Position numbers and translations under genes: made by a program | The notes under the pieces: generated by a model | The model's input: the letters and a program-made list of their open reading frames with translations, nothing else | Told to the model about the DNA's origin: nothing | The model's database searches: none | In this document: positions 2,742 through 63,743 of the stretch, piece by piece | How positions within the stretch are numbered: position 1 is the first letter of the stretch | Layout of the letters: the number at the start of each line of letters is the position of its first letter | IMG/VR virus record: IMGVR_UViG_3300022924_000001 | Location: 1-64,000 of that record | From: a virus | Length of the DNA: 64,000 nt | Direction: 5' to 3' (one strand)

Positions 2742-5494
2742 TATTGTAAACTTTTTATTAAGTTATCCACTTCTGTTTCTGTTGGGTTGTCTATAAGGTA
2801 TCTAAGGACTCCTTCAGAGACCAAAACTTGTGGATAGTTTTTAACCAGATATGGGATATCATCCTGAAGATATTGCATTCCTGTATCACCTTCAGTTAAG
2901 GTTTTTCCATTTGAAGTTGCTAGATTGATTGCCCAAGTACCGTCAAATGGCTTAACTGTCGGTACAAATTTATTAAGGTTTTCAGACATGGAATTGACCA
3001 GCGTCTCTAGTTTGGCTTCAGGGATTTTATTCTTCAGCGCTGCCTTATAGACATCCAATGTTCTTTGTTCTGTCAAAAAATTGTTGGGAGGAGCTACAAA
3101 ACCTTTCCTTATTTCGGGGGATATGTTATTTATGTAAGTATCCGCTTTTCCAAGCAGTGTTTTTTTGGTGTTGTCCAAGTAGTTTATATTTCTTCCCGGC
3201 GTTATTTTTATGCTGGTTCTTTGTGCGTCAAGTCCTTGCTGGTTACTGCTGGTCTGAGCATACTTTATAAGTTCTTTATAAGCAGCATCTTCTTTACCTA
3301 CAACAACCTGAGCTGATACTTTTTTAGTGCTTTCTTTTCCGTCTGTGTAACCTTTATTCTGCACTATAGTTAATGTTTCATCCTCATTTTTGTAGAAGGA
3401 GAGCGGTGCTTTTTCAGTAAACACCTGTGTATCATCTGTCTGAGGTATCATATTTATAATACGTTTCCTTAACGGTTCACTTCCTATTGTGGCTATATTG
3501 GAAGTATTGAAGTAAGTGGTCTGACCCGCAACGGTTTTTCTGTTAAGATCTGTATTGGCAACATCTGTAGCCTCATTTTTTAAATCCTGCCTTACAAAGT
3601 TTGCTGAGGGTATTCTGGCACTTCTGCTGGTAAGCCCATTAAGTATATCTGCAAATTGGGAAAGTTTTACTTTGTCTGTTGTAAGTACTTTCTTAAGGTT
3701 ATCCCAACCACCGTTTGTATCAACAAAGGTTTTGGCTTTGCTGTATAATTGAGCGTCTCTTCTGGCAGAATCGCCTACTGTAACATCTCCTAATGTACCC
3801 AAAGTTACTGTGTCAAGTGCAGTGTCTAAAATAGAAGCTGTTCTGTTTGCAACTGACGAGTCTACATTGGCAGATTTCATTTCATCTCGAAGAGATTGGA
3901 TATAGGTATCTGGTTTTTTGGCAAAGGTATTGGTGAGCGCATCCCCTTTTACCCCCCAGTATTCATTTGCAAGTGAGTTTCTTTTTACTTCTATTCCTGC
4001 AAGCTGTTTGGCCACATCCCCATAGACAGCCCCTACATTGGAAGCATCAAATGCCATTTTCATAGCTAAAGACTTAGGGAATTGTGCAGCTGTTTTTTCT
4101 TTTCCGCTCAAAACGTTTCCTTGCGCATCATACCCCATCTTATTCATCTCCGAAGCATAATGCTCTTTTATATCAGGACTTACTCGGTCGCTGTTAACAG
4201 TGTTACCTATTAAACTTACCATTTCGGCTGTTGTTGACAAATATTCTTTTTCTAAACCTTTAAATGGGTCTATCTCATTCTCTAAAGCCCCTTCTCTGGC
4301 AGCAGTTGTGATAGCTCCACTTGCATTTACAGCGTTACCCTGTGCATCAACTCCAAGCTCCTGTTGTAGTTTTGCTATTTCCAAGGCGCTTTTGGTCATG
4401 TCAAGACCAAATTTCTGCTGGGCTCTTTGTTCTTCTGATTGTTGGATTTCTAATCCTGCCTTGGCAAAATAGTATTCATCCTTATTTATTTCCTGAGACC
4501 ACTTGGCCTGCGCCATATTGGCAATACCTGATTTCCAATTTTCTTTTTCCAGAAAACCTCCTAAAGTTACAGGGTCGTTTAAATCTAAAGAAGATAATTC
4601 ACTATTTGTCTGTTCTTTTTGCCTGATATAGGCATCCATTTTTACCTGAGCTTCTTTCTTCTGGCTGTCAGGGATAGCCGAATTATTTATAAACGCTCTT
4701 TGATTGCTTATATTCTCATCTATATTAGCATTTATAGAAGTCTTATAGGCTTCAAAGTTCCTTTGTGCTAACGGTAATTGATCTTTGTATTTTGCCCAGC
4801 CATTTATTTTCAACTGCTGGTCTTCTTGACTTGTCAGTATGTTTGGAATGTACTCAAATATCTCCTGAGAGGTAAGCCCATCTATTGTTCTTTTTATCAT
4901 CCTACCCGGGTTTTGGGGATCAGGTGTTTCTATAACTTGTTTACCTCGTAAATCTTTTAAGTCTTTTATCTTCTTTAGTTGTGTAGCTGTGACATCTACA
5001 TAAGGGTTATAATTTAAATTTCCAATAGTATCCGTCTGGCCTGTCAACCACTGATCTGCACCCCCTTGAGCTAAACTGAAACTGTAATTAGCATCATTGT
5101 AAGTGTTTGGGTCTTTTTCTCTTAATTTGGCGACATTTGCATTGTAAGCGTCTATTTTCTGTCCTTGTGCTACAGCATTGATTGTCTGCGAATCTAGTGC
5201 CGAATGTATCTGATTTGTAATATTTCTTGTTACCCCCGGATTATCTAAGGCTAACTTACCGCTATTATTCACCTGAGCTAACAGGCTCTGCACATTGTTA
5301 GCCAAGTGTTGACGGTCTTTGTCTCTTTTTAATAAGCTGTCTATTTTTCCTAGTTCAGCAAGTCCCTGATCTATCTGCATTACAGATGTATCAAAACGCC
5401 CTTGCTTGGCAGCCATTACGGTATTTATTAATCCTAGGTTTACAGGATCTTGTACTTTGTTAAATGAATCAGGAGTCGATAAATAGTTAGCCAT
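2741..5494 (-). CDS. large virion protein (917 aa), function unknown
   Basis: Long ORF whose stop overlaps the next start. It is Q/N-rich and coiled-coil-like, and a late promoter architecture lies at 5514-5564. Confidence 0.8.
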   Translation of the reverse strand: MANYLSTPDSFNKVQDPVNLGLINTVMAAKQGRFDTSVMQIDQGLAELGKIDSLLKRDKDRQHLANNVQSLLAQVNNSGKLALDNPGVTRNITNQIHSALDSQTINAVAQGQKIDAYNANVAKLREKDPNTYNDANYSFSLAQGGADQWLTGQTDTIGNLNYNPYVDVTATQLKKIKDLKDLRGKQVIETPDPQNPGRMIKRTIDGLTSQEIFEYIPNILTSQEDQQLKINGWAKYKDQLPLAQRNFEAYKTSINANIDENISNQRAFINNSAIPDSQKKEAQVKMDAYIRQKEQTNSELSSLDLNDPVTLGGFLEKENWKSGIANMAQAKWSQEINKDEYYFAKAGLEIQQSEEQRAQQKFGLDMTKSALEIAKLQQELGVDAQGNAVNASGAITTAAREGALENEIDPFKGLEKEYLSTTAEMVSLIGNTVNSDRVSPDIKEHYASEMNKMGYDAQGNVLSGKEKTAAQFPKSLAMKMAFDASNVGAVYGDVAKQLAGIEVKRNSLANEYWGVKGDALTNTFAKKPDTYIQSLRDEMKSANVDSSVANRTASILDTALDTVTLGTLGDVTVGDSARRDAQLYSKAKTFVDTNGGWDNLKKVLTTDKVKLSQFADILNGLTSRSARIPSANFVRQDLKNEATDVANTDLNRKTVAGQTTYFNTSNIATIGSEPLRKRIINMIPQTDDTQVFTEKAPLSFYKNEDETLTIVQNKGYTDGKESTKKVSAQVVVGKEDAAYKELIKYAQTSSNQQGLDAQRTSIKITPGRNINYLDNTKKTLLGKADTYINNISPEIRKGFVAPPNNFLTEQRTLDVYKAALKNKIPEAKLETLVNSMSENLNKFVPTVKPFDGTWAINLATSNGKTLTEGDTGMQYLQDDIPYLVKNYPQVLVSEGVLRYLIDNPTETEVDNLIKSLQ

Positions 5495-7772: not shown

Positions 7773-10436
7773 TTAACTTTTGCCTCCAAATCTTTTCTTG
7801 GTTGCACGTTTTTTAGTTTTTGATACATCTGTAGTTACTAGAGGTGAAGCTAAAGCTTGTTCTTTATAAAATGTTGGCATAACCCCTAACCTCTCTATAC
7901 CATTATTACCGTATCCAAAGTTACTATACAGTTCATTAAGTCTATTAACATTATTTACCGCATTGTAATTAGTCAAATTTACAGCTTGCATTTGATTATA
8001 GTAATTTCTTGTATTTTGGTCTGTAATTGCCTTGGCCGTTAATATTTTTCGTTCGTAGTCATTCAAATCTACCCCCCTTGCATTTTCTTCCTGCATCTGA
8101 ACCTGCGCGTTAAACTGTTGCGACTGTGCATCCGAGCCCAGATTTTGCCTGTTTGTGTCTGCTATAGTTTTTGCAATATTCTGCTGGGTAATAGCGGATA
8201 AATTAGCTAGTGCTGCTGTTCTTTGAGAATCAGGCAATTGGTTTATCTGTTGCTGTGCCTGTGATTCCTGCGCCCTTAATTCTGATATTTGCTGGTCAGG
8301 TGTAAGCATAAGAGGATCAATCCTGTCATATCTTCTTGTTAATTTTAATGCACCTTCCAAACTATCAGGCATTAGTGGCATCTGATTAGGTAAAAGCAAT
8401 GTATTTAGATTATCTCTCTGTCCTTGTGTTGCTACTACGTCTTCCTGTGTATTTACAGGCTCTGTGTAAGGATTATATTGGTTAGGGATATTTCCTGCTG
8501 TAGGTAAAATGTTATTGTATACAGGTGTCTGTAAATAGTTTGCCGGGGCATTTGGAAACCTGTTCTCAATAAGTCCGTCTGCAAATTGGTTTAGGTAGAA
8601 TTCAGAGGTATCCAATCCTTTTGACTTCATTACTGATACCAATGCGTTTTTTTCTTCCGGTGTATATTGGGCGGAAGGTTTATCGGCAGGTATTCCTATT
8701 TGTGCAAATATCTCAGGGTTATTGGCTTTTATCAAATCTACGCCTTTGGCGGTAATATCCACAGCTCTTGCGTATTGTTCCGTTGATTGTGGTTGATTGG
8801 CTACTGACCAGTTTTGTAATTCTGCAACTGCGGCATTCAGGTCTTTCTCATTTCCTGTTATATTTCCATCATATCCTGCAAAACGGGCAGTACTTAAAAA
8901 GTCTTTCAAGGTCTGTCTTTTCTGCTCTTCTGTGCGTGGATGGTACCCTCCTATCTGGTAAGTAGCCTCAGTATTCTCCTCATCTGATTTAGAGGCTTCC
9001 TGTCTATTAAATACATCGTCCATCAGTGACTTTCTTGCCTCTTCCAAAGGTGTTTTCTGCTCTTCCAGTTCAGCGAGTTTTGTAGACAAAAATTCCTTAT
9101 TCAAATCTACTGTTGTAGTGGCACTTTGATTGTCTCTTACTATCTCTTCCTGCTTCTTTAGTTTTTTTATTATGTCTTCCTGTTCTTCAACCAATGCTTT
9201 TAATCCTGATTTTGCAGTAAACTTATCCAACACCTTTGCGTAGGTATCTTTGGGTCTTACTTCTAATCCAAAATTATCGGTATAGTGCTTTGCATTTTCT
9301 TTACCTACTTTTAAGTGATCTGATACAATTCTCTCTCCGGGTTCCAGATTTACATGAACTCCTCCCTTTTCGTGTGTGTCTCCTATAGCTTTTGTAATGC
9401 CTCCCAAGTTATCCTGCAAGTACTCATTATGTTCTACTTCTGCTGTTACACTAGGATCATTCTTATTTAGGGAAGTGGTGTATTCTCCAGTCAATTCTTT
9501 AACAATAGTCCCACCTTTTTGCATGAAGTTTTCCTGCGGTGATTGTAGTTGTTGCATTATACCCTCTACTAGTTGGGTTGCTTGATTTTCTTCCATGCCT
9601 GATTCTATAAGAGTCTGCAATACCTGTTGTGGGTCTGCTCCCTGCTGTAATGCCTGCACTATTTGTGCTTCTATTCCTTGTTGTCCGCCTTCCTGAAAGG
9701 ATTGTGTTGCAGGAATTTGTGCCTGTCGTACTCTTCTGTCATACTCTGTCTGTATAAAATTCTCCCTGTTACCAAGTCCTAAACCTCCTACAATATTTCT
9801 ACCTAGGCCTGTAAGTAACTTGGCTGAACTTCCTACTATACCCAAATCATTTTTATCCTTTATGGATTGTCCTAGAAAAGTGGCGGCACTTTGCAAATCT
9901 ACTCCTCCATAAGGATTGAAGTATTGTATAGGCGGTGTATATTTATTTTCAGTGTCTGTTGTCTGTGGGGTGCCTTCAAAATATAGAGGACTCCTTGTAT
10001 CATTTATAGGATAATACGGGGTTGCTGTCTGTGGTTGTTCTACTCCATAAGTCGTAGTTACATTACCCATAGTTTCAGGACTTGTTGTAGCGGTTACGGT
10101 AGGACTGTTACTATTCATATATGCATTTCCCATTCCCTGAGTTATTGGATAATTCGTAGGGGTAACTTGAGCCTGAGTAGTAGGCATTGGAGCATTGAGA
10201 ATGTTCTCAAAATTTGCATTTGCCGAGTAGTTTGGGTTAAATATCTGGTTCATACTTAAAGCATTTCCTACTCTTACAGGGTTTGCTATAGTCTGAGGAA
10301 TATCGTCTTTTTTTCTCGGTATTCTTACATTATCCCAAGTAGAGCTTCCAAAAGAGCCTAAAAAATCAGTGAATACGTTATTCGGTACTTGTGTTCCTCC
10401 CTGATATTTAGGTTTTCTATTTATCTTTTTTTTCAT
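7773..10436 (-). CDS. large virion/ejection-type protein (887 aa)
   Basis: Long ORF whose start overlaps the stop of the 774-aa gene. It has Q/P/N/T-rich low-complexity N-terminal and C-terminal parts and a basic C-terminus. It shares a PQENFMQKGGTI module with the neighbouring gene. Confidence 0.8.
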   Translation of the reverse strand: MKKKINRKPKYQGGTQVPNNVFTDFLGSFGSSTWDNVRIPRKKDDIPQTIANPVRVGNALSMNQIFNPNYSANANFENILNAPMPTTQAQVTPTNYPITQGMGNAYMNSNSPTVTATTSPETMGNVTTTYGVEQPQTATPYYPINDTRSPLYFEGTPQTTDTENKYTPPIQYFNPYGGVDLQSAATFLGQSIKDKNDLGIVGSSAKLLTGLGRNIVGGLGLGNRENFIQTEYDRRVRQAQIPATQSFQEGGQQGIEAQIVQALQQGADPQQVLQTLIESGMEENQATQLVEGIMQQLQSPQENFMQKGGTIVKELTGEYTTSLNKNDPSVTAEVEHNEYLQDNLGGITKAIGDTHEKGGVHVNLEPGERIVSDHLKVGKENAKHYTDNFGLEVRPKDTYAKVLDKFTAKSGLKALVEEQEDIIKKLKKQEEIVRDNQSATTTVDLNKEFLSTKLAELEEQKTPLEEARKSLMDDVFNRQEASKSDEENTEATYQIGGYHPRTEEQKRQTLKDFLSTARFAGYDGNITGNEKDLNAAVAELQNWSVANQPQSTEQYARAVDITAKGVDLIKANNPEIFAQIGIPADKPSAQYTPEEKNALVSVMKSKGLDTSEFYLNQFADGLIENRFPNAPANYLQTPVYNNILPTAGNIPNQYNPYTEPVNTQEDVVATQGQRDNLNTLLLPNQMPLMPDSLEGALKLTRRYDRIDPLMLTPDQQISELRAQESQAQQQINQLPDSQRTAALANLSAITQQNIAKTIADTNRQNLGSDAQSQQFNAQVQMQEENARGVDLNDYERKILTAKAITDQNTRNYYNQMQAVNLTNYNAVNNVNRLNELYSNFGYGNNGIERLGVMPTFYKEQALASPLVTTDVSKTKKRATKKRFGGKS

Positions 10437-48413: not shown

Positions 48414-48804
48414 TTCTAAAGCCTATTGTGTAAAGTCTGTATTTTTTTTCTATAAAAGTCTGCCGGATTGATTTGAGGTCTTCATTAAGTTCAAATTTTC
48501 TCATATTGTTCCTGCAAGTAATAAGATATCCTTTATCCCTCAGTTGTTTGTTTATCCCGTGAAGGTGGTTCTTCTTTTTGTTTAGGTCGGCACATACCAT
48601 ATCTAGCGTGTCATCAGAAATACCCTTCCTTACATAATAAACAAGTATGTTTTTTTCAAACTCCCTCAACCTGTCACTGCCCGTAAATTTGATTATGCTG
48701 TAAATGGATATAATCCTTTCTACCAAGTCGATTTCGTTCTTGATTTCACAGGTATTCAGGTGTATATTTACAGGAGTAGCTGACATGGATGTAAAATTAA
48801 TCAT
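48406..48804 (-). CDS. hypothetical protein (132 aa), winged-helix-like
   Basis: ORF track. First gene of the minus-strand module. INKQLRDKGYLI is wHTH-like (weak). Confidence 0.5.
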   Translation of the reverse strand: MINFTSMSATPVNIHLNTCEIKNEIDLVERIISIYSIIKFTGSDRLREFEKNILVYYVRKGISDDTLDMVCADLNKKKNHLHGINKQLRDKGYLITCRNNMRKFELNEDLKSIRQTFIEKKYRLYTIGFRNV

Positions 48805-48912
48805 TTTTATAGTATCTTCCTAATGTTTTAACTTTTTATTAAGAAAATTATAATTTATTTTTATTATGAGACTTTTTCAGCTAAGTAATTTTTTTGGGGG
48901 GTTTTCATTTTG

Positions 48913-48920
48913 TAATTTTG
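48913..48920 (+). promoter_or_regulatory. -7 box TAATTTTG
   Basis: Matches TAnnTTTG, 17 nt before the ATG at 48938. Confidence 0.5.
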
Positions 48921-48937
48921 CATAAAAACCAGTTATA

Positions 48938-49192
48938 ATGAAAGATTACGATGAATTCTATAGCCTGATATGGGGATACTATTTGCAGCCAAGTGACGTA
49001 TCCTACGATTACAGGGAACTTCACACAGACTTCATAAGAAACCTTACGTTTGGTTTTTACAGGGACTACGAGAAGAATAATGTGCATGTATCAGTATATG
49101 CCAAGGCTATGAAAACAGTTTTTATTAACCTGTTCTTGTTTTCTCCTGAGACTACTGACTTTGGAGACTCAAAAGATTATAATGATATTTAG
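48938..49192 (+). CDS. stand-alone hypothetical protein (84 aa)
   Basis: ORF track. It has its own -7 box and its own terminator. Confidence 0.6.
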   Translation: MKDYDEFYSLIWGYYLQPSDVSYDYRELHTDFIRNLTFGFYRDYEKNNVHVSVYAKAMKTVFINLFLFSPETTDFGDSKDYNDI

Positions 49193-49207
49193 TTGTTGAT
49201 TTGTTTT

Positions 49208-49240
49208 GCCCCGGCGTTTTATTTTGGCTGGGGCTTTTTT
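49208..49240 (+). terminator. rho-independent terminator
   Basis: GCCCCGGC-11 nt loop-GCTGGGGC (8 bp including one G.U) followed by TTTTTT. Confidence 0.7.
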
Positions 49241-49259
49241 AAACTTATAATCTAATTAG

Positions 49260-49291
49260 TTTGGTGATCCGATAAAGATTTTGTATATTTG
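49260..49291 (+). promoter_or_regulatory. full consensus Bacteroidota-type promoter TTTG-N20-TATATTTG
   Basis: TTTG at 49260-49263 and TATATTTG at 49284-49291. It points into ~800 nt with no ORF. Confidence 0.55.
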
Positions 49292-49297
49292 TCTTAT

Positions 49298-49980
49298 ATA
49301 TGAGCTAATCATATTGTTGCCGGAAAGTGCGTTTCAATAGACGTGATATAGTAGGTTTTAATCGGTTTAATTACTGATAGCATGCATCACTTTTTCTGGC
49401 TTAAATTATAATTATGAAAAAAGATATATTGCTGTGGGATATCATCCGAATGAAGGATATAGACCTAATATAAAAATAAATGTTAAAATATTTGGTAGTT
49501 AAAATTAAATAAACTACTTTTGTTCAATCAATATTTCGAATCAAATTATTAAGGGTTGTGGAAATTCCTAAAATAGATATTATATAAAAATAAATCTCCT
49601 TGAATACTAGCTAATTTCCACTTTAGGCTTTTATTCTTGGGGATTTTTTTATTTTATAACGTGAGGCTACGAATGTTTATTCGTTCACGTTGAGGAGAGA
49701 TTAACTCCAAAGCTAAAAGGAAGAGGGAGGCAAATTGTCTAGTCCGCCTGAGAGTAGGCTGTATTAGTTCAGCCTTAATAAAATAAAAAACTAATACCAT
49801 TATATGGTCGTTCTGTAAGGCGTTGGGCGTTAGCCTTAAATAAATATAAATCCTATTGTGAGCGAAGCGAAATCAGCGTAAGCTGTTAAATAACAAATAG
49901 TTATTTATGTTATAAATAACAGAGTAACGCAGCGCAGCGTAGTTTACGATGTTATTCCCTTGCCTTGGGAAAGGCATTTA
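49298..49980 (+). ncRNA. candidate structured non-coding transcript(s), class unknown
   Basis: There is no ORF longer than 20 codons, and a promoter lies upstream. Long-range stem 49319-49329/49388-49400. Nested hairpin 49658-49691. GNRA-capped hairpins CAGC-GTAA-GCTG (49874-85) and TGCCTT-GGGA-AAGGCA (49961-76). 9-bp hairpin 49900-49920. The 49655-49985 island is locally less AT-rich. Confidence 0.35.
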
Positions 49981-50090
49981 TAAACAGAAAACAACGTATC
50001 CCACTTTCAATCGGTTGGTTTGTTACCTGCTTAAAAATAGTATTTAATAGAAAATTAATTGTAACTTTAATAGGTTATAAATAAAAATAT

Positions 50091-50098
50091 TTGTAAAT
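50091..50098 (+). promoter_or_regulatory. -7 box TAAATTTG for the early operon
   Basis: Matches TAnnTTTG, 15 nt before the ATG at 50114. Confidence 0.5.
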
Positions 50099-50113
50099 TT
50101 GAACTATAAATCT

Positions 50114-50686
50114 ATGATTATGAAATATTATGCAGTTAAGACAGGTAAAATTCCGGGAATATACTATAATTGGGATGAATGTAAGGATCAAATAAACAAA
50201 TATCCCGGAGCTATATTTAAATCTTTTGAAAATATAGAACAAGCGAATAAGTTCTTAACAGGTAAAGAATATAATACTGATAGATATACAGTTGACTCAC
50301 TTAACTGTGATGGAGCTTATTCTGCTAGAACTAATATCATGGAGTATAATATAGCGGATACAACAACAGGTAAGATTCTGGTAAACAAAAAGTTTGACGG
50401 CGGTACAAATAACATAGCCGAATTTTTAGGACTAGTAGAAGCTATGAGGTTATTAAAAACAAATAATATTGATAAAATAATATACACTGACTCTTTAACA
50501 GCATTGGCTTGGGTAAGGAATAAAAATATCAACAGTGTTTATGACATAACTGATAATAAAAAGATAGAACAGGATGTTTGGGGTGCGCGGGTATTTCTCT
50601 CAAAAATTAATATTTCTGATTTCAATCTGAAAAAGTGGGATACTGTAAATTGGGGACAAATACCAAGTGATTTCGGAAGAAAATAA
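50114..50686 (+). CDS. rnhA: RNase H1 with N-terminal hybrid-binding (HBD) domain
   Basis: YYAVKTGKIPGIYYNWDECKDQINKYPGAIFKSFENIEQANKFL is the RNase H1 N-terminal dsRNA/hybrid-binding domain. Catalytic motifs CDGAY, TNNIAEFLGLVEA and IYTDS. The track start at 50099 is TTG; the ATG at 50114 (or 50120) is preferred. Confidence 0.85.
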   Translation: MIMKYYAVKTGKIPGIYYNWDECKDQINKYPGAIFKSFENIEQANKFLTGKEYNTDRYTVDSLNCDGAYSARTNIMEYNIADTTTGKILVNKKFDGGTNNIAEFLGLVEAMRLLKTNNIDKIIYTDSLTALAWVRNKNINSVYDITDNKKIEQDVWGARVFLSKINISDFNLKKWDTVNWGQIPSDFGRK

Positions 50687-62388: not shown

Positions 62389-62411
62389 AAAATACTATAA
62401 AAATAATTAAG

Positions 62412-62447
62412 AACCCTTGTATTAACTTACAGGGGTTTGTTCTTTAT
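62412..62447 (+). terminator. terminator-like hairpin ending the early operon
   Basis: AACCCTTGT-8 nt-ACAGGGGTT (one G.U) followed by the T-rich TGTTCTTTAT. Confidence 0.5.
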
Positions 62448-62470
62448 AAGAAGTAATGTAAGAACAAAAA

Positions 62471-62610
62471 GTAAACAGATTTGTTTACATTAATATAAAT
62501 AAGTAAACACGTATATTGATGGTGTATAGGGGGTGGCTTGATAATAACCACTATAGGTAAGGGCTTTATTTTTAGTCTGAGACTTGGGGGATAATAAAAA
62601 AATTGTAAAC
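62471..62610. repeat. GTAAACA iteron-like repeats
   Basis: GTAAACA at 62471-77 and 62503-09, an inverted TGTTTAC at 62482-88, and GTAAAC at 62605-10. Confidence 0.6.
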
Positions 62611-62624
62611 GTTATTGACACATA

Positions 62625-62703
62625 ACCCACCCTATATACAAACCCCAACCAAAAAGGAAATTTTTACCTAACCCCCGCCTAACCAAAATCAAAACCCCAA
62701 ACC
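62625..62703 (+). repeat. G-poor A+C tract with AACCCC-type repeats
   Basis: AAACCCCAACCAAAAA, TAACCCCCGCCTAACCAAAA and AAAACCCCAAACCG. It is mirrored by G-runs at 62521-62590. Confidence 0.7.
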
Positions 62704-62986
62704 GTTTTTGACCGATTCCTATTTTTAAAATCCAAAATTTAATTTATTTTTTAACATAAATAATTTGCGTATGTCAAATATTGTTTCTAATCAACGTTCT
62801 CGAACTTTTGATAGTCTCATACCTTACTACCTCTTTACGTGTCTTAAAAACGCTTATAATCAATATTACACTATATTTGACGTTTACCTCACAATCCAAT
62901 TAGTTTAATACGAGGAACGCACGCGCATATACAACAATCTTTTTAAATAAAAAAATTTATTTTCACTATTTTTATTAAAATGTTGA

Positions 62987-62994
62987 CATATATT
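62987..62994 (+). promoter_or_regulatory. -7 box TATATTTG
   Basis: Matches TAnnTTTG, 45 nt before the ATG at 63040. A second TATATTTG lies at 62872-62879. Confidence 0.45.
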
Positions 62995-63039
62995 TGTAGT
63001 GTTGAAAGCAACTAAGCTACCAACTTAAATCTAAACATT

Positions 63040-63174
63040 ATGGCACTTTCAAAATTACAAAATGATAAGCTAGAATCACTTTACAATGACTACAACAACG
63101 GAGTAATTACATGTAACGAATACTTAGAGAAACAAACCTTAGTTTTAGGGTCTAAAATACTACAAAGCTCTTAA
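63040..63174 (+). CDS. hypothetical small protein (44 aa)
   Basis: Read by hand: MALSKLQNDKLESLYNDYNNGVITCNEYLEKQTLVLGSKILQSS. Confidence 0.35.
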   Translation: MALSKLQNDKLESLYNDYNNGVITCNEYLEKQTLVLGSKILQSS

Positions 63175-63175
63175 A

Positions 63176-63309
63176 CCTGCGAAATACCCTTTGGGTATCG
63201 ATACCTAGCCATTAAAGGTATCCTGATGAGTTTGGCAAGTGTGACACCACTATAACTGTCTGCTTAGCTTGCTAGTATGGATTAATCGCCGAATCAAGCC
63301 ACGAAATAC
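63176..63309 (+). ncRNA. hammerhead ribozyme candidate (predicted cleavage between C63199 and G63200)
   Basis: C-GAAA-UACCC-UUU-GGGUA-UC | GAUACC-11 nt loop-GGUAUC-CUGAUGA-G. All invariant core nucleotides are present and stems I and III are perfect. Stem II is weak locally or formed with GCCAC-GAAA at 63298-63306. Confidence 0.6.
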
Positions 63310-63563
63310 AAATAGTATAGTAGTGTTTTAATACGTGTTTAAAAACATTAGTGTTAGGCTTTCAATATGGAAATATTGGGTTAGTAAATAAGCAATTCCT
63401 GCGCGTTGGTTACGCTTGTAGAATGGATGAAACATAAATAACCTAACTAAATAGATTCGTGGTTAACGTTGGGCGCAACTCCCTAAAATATAAACGGTAT
63501 TAGTAAGTACTATTAATAAGGTTCGTAACCTTTACCGTTTGCTAACTATTAAAATATAATATT

Positions 63564-63743
63564 ATGACTATTCAAAAATTCTTTAAGGTTTTAAGCTATT
63601 ATCTTATACTTATTAATATCGGTATGTTGGTGTATGCTGTAATAAAATTAGATATAAAATTTATTTGTTTGTTTTCTTGTTTTATTGCGGTGTTTATTTT
63701 TATTAACTGGTTGTGGTCTGAACCCCTAAAATTTAAATTATGA
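63564..63743 (+). CDS. small membrane protein (59 aa)
   Basis: Read by hand: MTIQKFFKVLSYYLILINIGMLVYAVIKLDIKFICLFSCFIAVFIFINWLWSEPLKFKL, with two TM helices. Confidence 0.45.
   Translation: MTIQKFFKVLSYYLILINIGMLVYAVIKLDIKFICLFSCFIAVFIFINWLWSEPLKFKL

Follow-up and report, generated by a model that had tools for sequence, protein, structure and literature searches.

Large structured RNAs whose function is unknown are uncommon; several of the known examples have been linked, without explanation, to phages and to tRNA clusters. GOLLD and ROOL are large RNAs often found near tRNAs and in prophages; they are possibly co-transcribed with the tRNAs and their function is unknown (PMC5737381). A later preprint on these RNAs describes them as forming RNA-only complexes (bioRxiv 10.1101/2024.12.08.627333). 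This study concerns a 0.86-kb gap, free of credible open reading frames (ORFs), in the genome of a marine Flavobacteria-type phage (IMG/VR record IMGVR_UViG_3300022924_000001). The full virus genome comprises 133,478 bp; its first 64 kb constitute the stretch analysed here, which we term the window. The gap is the divergence point between minus-strand late genes and plus-strand early genes, and toward its 3' end it contains a pseudoknotted intrinsic terminator, element C, followed by a multi-hairpin RNA, element D. It is very likely that C and D are genuine structured RNAs, while the roles proposed for them below are held with moderate to low confidence. The type of locus, a phage RNA-gene island with structured RNAs of unknown function, is known; C and D themselves match no Rfam family.

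The closest cultured relative of this virus is Cellulophaga phage phi4:1 (genus Lightbulbvirus; L069, NC_021788.1), and the two share a common layout, in which a minus-strand terminase/head block is followed by a small plus-strand gene, a plus-strand RNA array and then early genes. The phi4:1 junction, which separates the minus-strand terminase block from helicase and RecA, holds a small plus-strand gene, 23 tRNA genes, a C-like element, approximately 540 nt of ORF-poor sequence and a helicase gene. Since tRNAs, small RNAs or long elements occupy the same junction in relatives, the slot appears to be an RNA-gene island and the positional counterpart of the phi4:1 tRNA cluster. Against the 23 tRNA genes of phi4:1, the window has none (ARAGORN detected no tRNA or tmRNA there, and neither did Rfam), and phi4:1 has no D homologue detectable by nhmmer or BLAST. 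Its C-like pseudoknotted terminator (9596-9760), on the other hand, has its own promoter match and its own compensatory version of helix a. The sequence that follows (9760-10315, about 540 nt) is ORF-poor and hairpin-rich, its sole annotated ORF having 44 codons; the region after the tRNAs has no Rfam match (E<=10), and it may represent another unannotated large RNA in the slot held by D in a related contig, L019. The locus thereby adds a Bacteroidota-phage example of a swappable island slot, filled in different phages by tRNAs, small RNAs or a large RNA, together with a small pseudoknotted terminator element whose conservation extends across the phage group to cultured phi4:1.

D resembles GOLLD and ROOL in being non-coding and several hundred nucleotides long, in its many helices, GNRA-type loops and few conserved nucleotides, and in its phage setting. 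The tRNA-adjacent location typical of those families is also found, as D lies in the slot of the phi4:1 23-tRNA cluster and the corresponding island of a related genome, G001, includes a tRNA-Asn. D differs in matching no Rfam model, in being shorter (about 330-520 nt), in having two members and in that the supported structure consists of local hairpins, not of multistem junctions or pseudoknots. The original prediction for this region had pointed to GOLLD and ROOL as families for comparison; no match to either emerged. Rfam release 15, applied to the whole window at gathering score, returned nothing, these two families included, and searches at E<=10 of 48800-50200, of 49640-50060 and of the L019 copy of D gave only noise, with no GOLLD, ROOL, HEARO, tmRNA, RNase P, intron or ribozyme match for the D copies.

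Relatives were recruited through the capsid protein and through alignment of ORF84, a conserved 84-aa gene. The major capsid protein shares 44% identity with those of Cellulophaga phages phi4:1 and phi17:2 and 83% with those of two IMG/VR genomes, G001 and G002. The related loci anchored on ORF84 are those of G001 and G002 (L016 and L017, respectively), the metagenome contigs L018, L019 and L020, and a short contig, L021; locus searches with the RNase H and with a 132-aa neighbour protein brought up no relatives. The first of the two elements to be considered is the following.

49557-49656, plus strand: element C, a pseudoknotted intrinsic terminator RNA, from the minimum free energy (MFE) fold and covariation

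Within C, a hairpin spans 49594-49643, with a U-tract from 49644, and bases 49613-49621 of its apical loop are paired with a 5' arm at 49558-49566. MFE prediction yields the long imperfect hairpin and U-tract for each of the six metagenomic or viral loci; in these and in phi4:1 the hairpins have energies of -16 to -28 kcal/mol and end at a T run, and C thus takes, in the predicted folds, the stem-loop and U-tract form of an intrinsic terminator. Pairing of the apical loop with an arm 35-45 nt upstream of the hairpin recurs, with 7-10 bp, in the six loci and again in phi4:1. The arm sequences vary among phages while their complementarity is kept, with several pair types per column, and RNAalifold selects the loop-to-arm helix unaided. 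In a plain MAFFT alignment, made from the sequences only, pairing extends to 83% of the cells of this helix versus 68% in shuffles (0/500), its covariation score is 0.474 versus 0.168 shuffled (0/500), slid controls are lower, and double changes are found in five of nine pairs. The available alignments are out of register for stems b and c of the element. The order of strands (arm, 5' side of the stem, loop partner, 3' side of the stem) makes the arrangement one of pseudoknot type, and this pairing of a loop with a linear segment, covarying across seven phages, is what would be expected of an H-type pseudoknot.

In three relatives (G001, G002 and L018), approximately 15-20 nt separate the C stem from the start codon of the following gene, and this interval contains no -7 box. 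Where D is present, in the window and in L019, it begins at the end of the T-rich tail of C or within 2 nt of it. Given that the downstream gene or RNA would be reached by read-through, C most likely works as a leaky or conditional terminator, metering how much transcription reads through from the RNA island. Hardly any nucleotide of the C linker is conserved, and C matches no leader or small RNA (sRNA) family in Rfam. A heuristic scan of the genome for further C-like elements was too unspecific to be informative, its only clean intergenic match being C itself.

Immediately downstream of C lies the second element, whose parts are listed here.

49658 to about 49981, plus strand: element D, a multi-hairpin RNA of approximately 330 nt, defined by homologue comparison, 3' end uncertain
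49658-64/49685-91, plus strand: D helix P1
49669-73/49680-84, plus strand: D helix P1a
49694-97/49705-08, plus strand: D helix P2
49756-61/49770-75, plus strand: D helix P4
49796-800/49804-08, plus strand: D helix P5
49817-21/49833-37, plus strand: D helix P6
49874-77/49882-85, plus strand: D helix P7
49962-65/49972-75, plus strand: D helix P9
49710-22, 49849-73 and 49926-44, plus strand: invariant linkers of D
49888-49920, plus strand: variable arm of D, two mutually exclusive A+T hairpins, including the 9-bp hairpin 49900-20, read from the sequence

D is homologous to positions 1447 to about 1965 of L019, in the form of identity blocks separated by diverged or inserted segments. The 13-mer at 49710-22 is identical, the 25 nt at 49849-73 and 17 nt in the P6 loop region have one mismatch each, and the 19 nt at 49926-44 have three; invariant blocks of up to 16 nt thus stand within otherwise diverged sequence. 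The diverged parts are the hairpins, each pinned by invariant flanks or loops, and it is here that conservation of pairing can be read. Among the 40 pairs of the eight helices, compared with L019, 26 are unchanged, 12 have changed on both sides, two have become G-U through a change on one side, and there are no broken pairs. These pairs were scored by script on hand-anchored helices; MAFFT misaligns most D helices. If each changed pair is given a chance of approximately 0.375 of staying pairable, the outcome has, by this rough estimate, an overall probability on the order of 1e-6. Both C (in seven phages) and D (in two) therefore keep their pairs by compensatory change when compared with related phages, the comparison that the original prediction had looked to, and it is this covariation rather than folding energy that provides the decisive evidence for structure. 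Three G-U pairs of D would be A-C mismatches on the minus strand; together with plus-strand promoters and terminators, all of them predicted, they indicate that the strand of D is the plus strand.

Every motif listed by the original prediction is present in the sequence, namely a promoter match (49260-49291), stem arms at 49319-29 and 49388-400, a nested hairpin (49658-49691), further hairpins at 49756-75, 49816-38, 49874-85 (GUAA loop), 49961-76 (GGGA loop, followed by TTTAT) and 49900-20 (9 bp), and AGCG copies at 49861, 49866, 49875, 49931 and 49936. The hairpins 49658-91, 49756-75, 49816-38, 49874-85 and 49961-76 are all among the supported helices of D. The P7 loop is GUAA, and that of P9 is GGGA here versus a GNR(N)A-type pentaloop in L019. 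The variable arm is replaced in L019 by a longer, unrelated insert, which places it outside the conserved core. Long-range candidates composed entirely of invariant blocks are a pairing of the 13-mer with the start of the 25-nt block and one of a CGCC block with the P6 loop, pairable in both copies. A long-range helix between the U-tract of C and an A-rich block of D, amounting to 13 bp here, was rejected on the grounds that it is not kept in L019.

The L019 copy of D runs approximately 110 nt further and ends in a strong terminator, which is followed by a helicase-like gene with its own promoter-like boxes. The corresponding stretch in the window is the following.

49982-50093, plus strand: tail between D and the promoter box of the RNase H gene, weakly alignable with L019

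No U-tract hairpin and no terminator could be recognized in 49982-50093, before the RNase H gene. As the L019 copy ends in its own terminator ahead of a different gene, D appears to be a self-contained module, with its 3' end open in this phage.

Further copies of D were sought in several collections. Exact patterns made from four invariant D blocks produced only chance matches in coding DNA when run against IMG/VR, and one D pattern run against a collection of species genomes likewise gave chance matches only. BLAST of both D copies against GenBank phages found none, and nhmmer detected no paralogue in the phage's own genome. D would accordingly appear to be a rare and previously undescribed RNA family, of which one other phage contig is known. 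An A+T-rich contig, L025, shares just a 16-mer with D. Thirteen kilobases downstream, a second ORF-poor island (window 62389-63565; L022 390-1565) is not a D paralogue and has in common with it only the 9-mer CGTTGGGCG, in the P6 loop region.

The gap as a whole is effectively non-coding. The longest stop-to-stop run within it, 72 codons, is no longer than chance (65 +/- 15 codons in shuffles) and no peptide of the gap is conserved with homologous sequence, from which the absence of coding function follows; read-through of any one stop codon (TAG, TGA or TAA) opens no credible frame. The original prediction had put the longest ORF at 19 codons, a figure that needs correction, since the longest plus-strand ATG ORF has 32 codons (49949-50047) and the 19-codon ORF is located at 49414-49473. 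The 799 nt fold as one sequence to an MFE of -182.4 kcal/mol, versus -158.6 +/- 6.1 kcal/mol for shuffled sequence (z -3.9). That the hairpins arose by chance in A+T-rich spacer DNA and have no function is extremely improbable. Such an explanation could draw on the 5' part of the gap, where a predicted hairpin-rich module, E, does not fold significantly, and on the two-box promoter pattern, which is not enriched across the window (five matches versus 3.8 expected, two of the five within this gap). It leaves unexplained the covariation of C in seven phages and of D in two, as well as invariant blocks of up to 16 nt in sequence that has otherwise diverged; a lack of function is possible for E only.

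The same blocks bear on the proposal that the gap is a replication origin between the divergent modules, with the AGCG cluster serving as iterons, which the original prediction had offered as an alternative and which we regard as highly improbable. In its favour are the location at the divergence point, where cumulative GC skew also reaches its minimum, the A+T-rich composition (30% G+C) and the five AGCG copies in 80 nt. Gene orientation and GC skew divide the genome into three blocks (minus from 1 to 48.8 kb, plus from 48.9 to about 118 kb and minus from about 118 to 133 kb), and the sign of the skew tracks gene orientation at both switches, at approximately 48 kb and 118 kb, so that the skew minimum carries no independent information on an origin. 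An iteron origin would be marked by several direct repeats of approximately 17-22 bp, an A+T-rich unwinding element and independent origin signals, whereas the direct repeats found here are only A+T-rich and of low complexity, none being of iteron length. The AGCG copies belong to blocks kept invariant in the homologous RNA, and the hairpins that flank them show changes that are compensatory and strand-specific. These AGCG-rich blocks contain mini-hairpin-like GCGNAGC units whose middle base differs between the two phages. Finally, three related phages are without the whole D segment.

A comparison of related loci indicates that the gap is a string of separate RNA modules, not one 800-nt RNA. 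ORF84 is followed by an ORF-free stretch in six related loci, of approximately 370 to 960 nt where it can be read through (the gap of L020 holds an inserted ORF, and L021 ends about 290 nt past ORF84), and the elements that come after ORF84 combine differently from phage to phage.

G001 (L016) island: an approximately 80-nt RNA, 'A', then tRNA-Asn(GTT), then element C
G002 (L017) island: A, then an approximately 75-nt RNA, 'B', then C
L019 island: B, C, then the long element D
L020 island: an inserted ORF, then B and C
L018 island: matches the window through 49402, then has insertions and a different version of C, and no D

Small RNA A (L016 3440-3532, L017 3345-3438 and, on the minus strand, L014 4815-4889) is approximately 80 nt long with a terminator at its end, and it also shows compensatory changes. 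Small RNA B (L017 3447-3538, L019 1240-1336 and L020 4258-4348) has about 75-90 nt, three hairpins and a terminator at its end; six of its pairs are compensatory in the three sequences, and the 9-nt loop of its middle hairpin is identical at eight of nine positions. B looks like a base-pairing sRNA with a conserved seed. The position of tRNA-Asn between A and C in G001 shows tRNAs and other small RNAs to be interchangeable in the island. In L020, a gene of approximately 240 codons (3460-4190) is inserted between the first promoter and RNA B; judged by its repeated sequence motifs, it looks to be of the homing-endonuclease type. Following C in the same contig are about 100 nt of G+C-richer, hairpin-like sequence (4478-4578), after which the contig ends. 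This end of the L020 island has no Rfam match (E<=10), and 4478-4578 may belong to the beginning of a further RNA that takes the place of D. L018 differs (window 49403-49490 versus L018 2624-2960) by two insertions, one of ~30 nt behind module E and one of ~200 nt behind a 19-codon mini-ORF, and in its 3' part; it carries an extra ORF of about 70 codons after the mini-ORF, which the phage of the window is without. The island is an indel hotspot even between these near-identical phages, whose ORF84 products are 99% identical.

Transcription signals were read from the sequence and are given below with the remaining features of the 5' part of the gap.

49260-49291, plus strand: promoter P1, Bacteroidota type (TTTG ... 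TAnnTTTG), an exact pattern match
49292-49402, plus strand: module E, a hairpin-rich leader or small RNA with a long-range stem, present in the MFE fold and otherwise unsupported
49414-49473, plus strand: 19-codon mini-ORF (MKKDILLWDIIRMKDIDLI), kept at 19 codons in L018
49491-49522, plus strand: promoter P2, an exact pattern match

A TAnnTTTG box is found 87-124 nt past the ORF84 stop in all seven related loci, and this kept position lends promoter P1 comparative support. For promoter P2, the -33 region is conserved in L018, with a -7 box at the matching place. These signals divide the stretch for which the original prediction had proposed a large structured RNA. That proposal stands for the 3' 40% of the stretch, where covariation supports C (49557-49656) and D (49658 to about 49981), and does not stand for the whole as one unit, inside which lie promoter P2 and a terminator ending at 49656. 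A single continuous functional RNA of 0.6-0.8 kb from promoter P1 would agree with the conserved position of that promoter, with a stretch that folds better as a whole than shuffles and with the lack of a strong terminator between promoter P1 and 49644. We nevertheless consider it very unlikely in view of the internal promoter and the canonical internal terminator, of relatives that combine the modules differently (C without D; A, B or a tRNA in place of E) and of the near-identical L018, with its two insertions and different 3' part.

The explanation that we favour, and judge as a whole to be rather likely, is that of an RNA island in which C is a leaky terminator and D a trans-acting structured RNA. 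Under this explanation the 0.86-kb ORF-free gap would be a non-coding RNA gene island heading the plus-strand early block, which host-type promoters P1 and P2 would transcribe rightwards; transcripts from promoter P1 would run through the 19-codon ORF and on to C. As the last element before the next gene or RNA in every phage, with no promoter between, C would meter read-through out of the island. D would be made by read-through of C, as suggested by its start 1-2 nt past the T-rich tail of C and by its having no promoter of its own. It would then be a stable, compactly folded phage RNA acting in trans, akin to the large 'ornate' RNAs found beside phage tRNA genes, a role that is our best guess and is drawn by analogy.

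Several observations weigh against this explanation. D is known from two sequences, support is confined to its local hairpins and its 3' end is undefined here. Its folding energy does not discriminate between the strands (z -2.7 on plus and -3.5 on minus). Three related phages are without D, the more distant G001 and G002 as well as L018, which is almost identical upstream; D is by this measure dispensable or recently acquired. The promoters and terminators are sequence predictions. The pseudoknot helix of C and the terminator might form together or might compete, and D could in this phage be nothing more than an upstream portion of the mRNA for RNase H.

This last point leads to the features at the right-hand border of the gap.

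50094-50101, plus strand: -7 box (TAnnTTTG), a pattern match 12 nt upstream of the RNase H ATG at 50114
50114-50686, plus strand: RNase H1-type gene, the first protein gene of the plus-strand early block

The product of this gene has the Pfam RNase H1 N-terminal domain (E 1e-19) and matches Pfam RNase H and PHROG 531. C and D might together form a structured leader at the 5' end of the early (RNase H/replication) operon, acting as an attenuator or processive antiterminator on polymerase from promoters P1 and P2. In this phage no terminator is recognized between D and RNase H, three relatives have C immediately ahead of their first early protein gene and no promoter in the interval, and C combines a bona fide terminator shape with a conserved extra helix. 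Attenuator terminators and C are indeed alike in having a G+C-containing stem and a U-tract immediately upstream of the next gene, with no intervening promoter. Unlike attenuators, C has an extra helix that pairs with the apical loop and not with the terminator arm, and hence does not obviously compete with the terminator; its linker, almost devoid of conserved nucleotides, offers none resembling a ligand pocket, as ligand-binding leaders would, and it belongs to no Rfam leader family. A -7 box of its own precedes the ATG of the RNase H gene by 12 nt, the L019 copy of D ends in a strong terminator ahead of a gene with its own promoter-like boxes, and the genes after D differ (RNase H here, helicase in L019). 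A cis-acting leader is therefore, in our estimation, unlikely. A plainer form of it, in which the region is the RNase H 5' untranslated region with no conservation of structure, was the null expectation of the original prediction; it is contradicted by the conserved structure as well as by the RNase H -7 box and the terminator of the L019 D.

The neighbouring RNase H1 gene also brings to mind the RNA II of ColE1, a structured primer transcript of several hundred nucleotides that is directed toward replication functions and involves RNase H. By analogy, D might stay hybridized to its template and be cut by the phage RNase H1 to prime DNA synthesis, forming an R-loop origin. As in that system, a structured RNA of several hundred nucleotides is directed toward replication genes, at the module junction, and the RNase H1 gene directly downstream encodes a hybrid-binding domain. 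In L019, however, the gene after D is helicase-like and not an RNase H, so that the only homologue of D is not linked to RNase H; an origin at this site is unsupported, the three related phages without D must still replicate, and no G-rich or C-rich segment that could anchor a hybrid was noted. A primer function for D is thus scarcely probable.

To return to the island with C as leaky terminator and D as trans-acting RNA, a stronger version can be formulated, in which D founds a new class of large, tertiary-folded phage RNA, functionally akin to GOLLD and ROOL and unrelated to them in sequence, and C is a pseudoknot-regulated terminator, perhaps read by the 84-aa protein, that gates polymerase entry into D and the early replication genes. 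We offer it as a tentative possibility, and a doubtful one. Should C indeed gate early-gene transcription, it would open a new way to approach temporal control in these abundant marine phages; should D adopt a defined three-dimensional structure, RNA structural biology would gain a new target.

The possible reader of C is encoded at the left-hand border of the gap.

48938-49192, plus strand: ORF84, conserved 84-aa gene that precedes the island in every related locus
49209-49241, plus strand: intrinsic terminator of ORF84, a G+C-rich stem of 8 bp and then a run of T, as read from the sequence, identical in L018

The constant linkage of ORF84 to element C suggests a functional tie. The ORF84 protein is 55-63% identical in relatives (by contig, 99% in L018, 63% in L019 and 51% in L020), and 20 homologues are present in a large protein collection. 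It is acidic and has many aromatic residues. AlphaFold models it as a small bundle of four helices (pLDDT 82), for which a fold search found no structural match in the PDB, and the protein belongs to no Pfam family.

Module E and the mini-ORF occupy the 5' part of the gap. The long-range stem between 49319-29 and 49388-400, part of the original prediction, does appear in the MFE fold of E; the module does not fold significantly (z -1.1), and L018, the only relative that carries it, is identical there and thus offers no covariation. E is not followed by a U-tract. The mini-ORF, which differs in L018 by one synonymous change and by changes at two other codons, could be a micro-protein or a leader peptide. 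Beyond the gap, the minus-strand genes to the left of 48.8 kb include those for a GroEL-like protein, terminase, portal and capsid, and the plus-strand genes to its right those for RNase H1 and a RecA-like protein. The two ends of the genome (G000) carry a 127-bp direct repeat in common.

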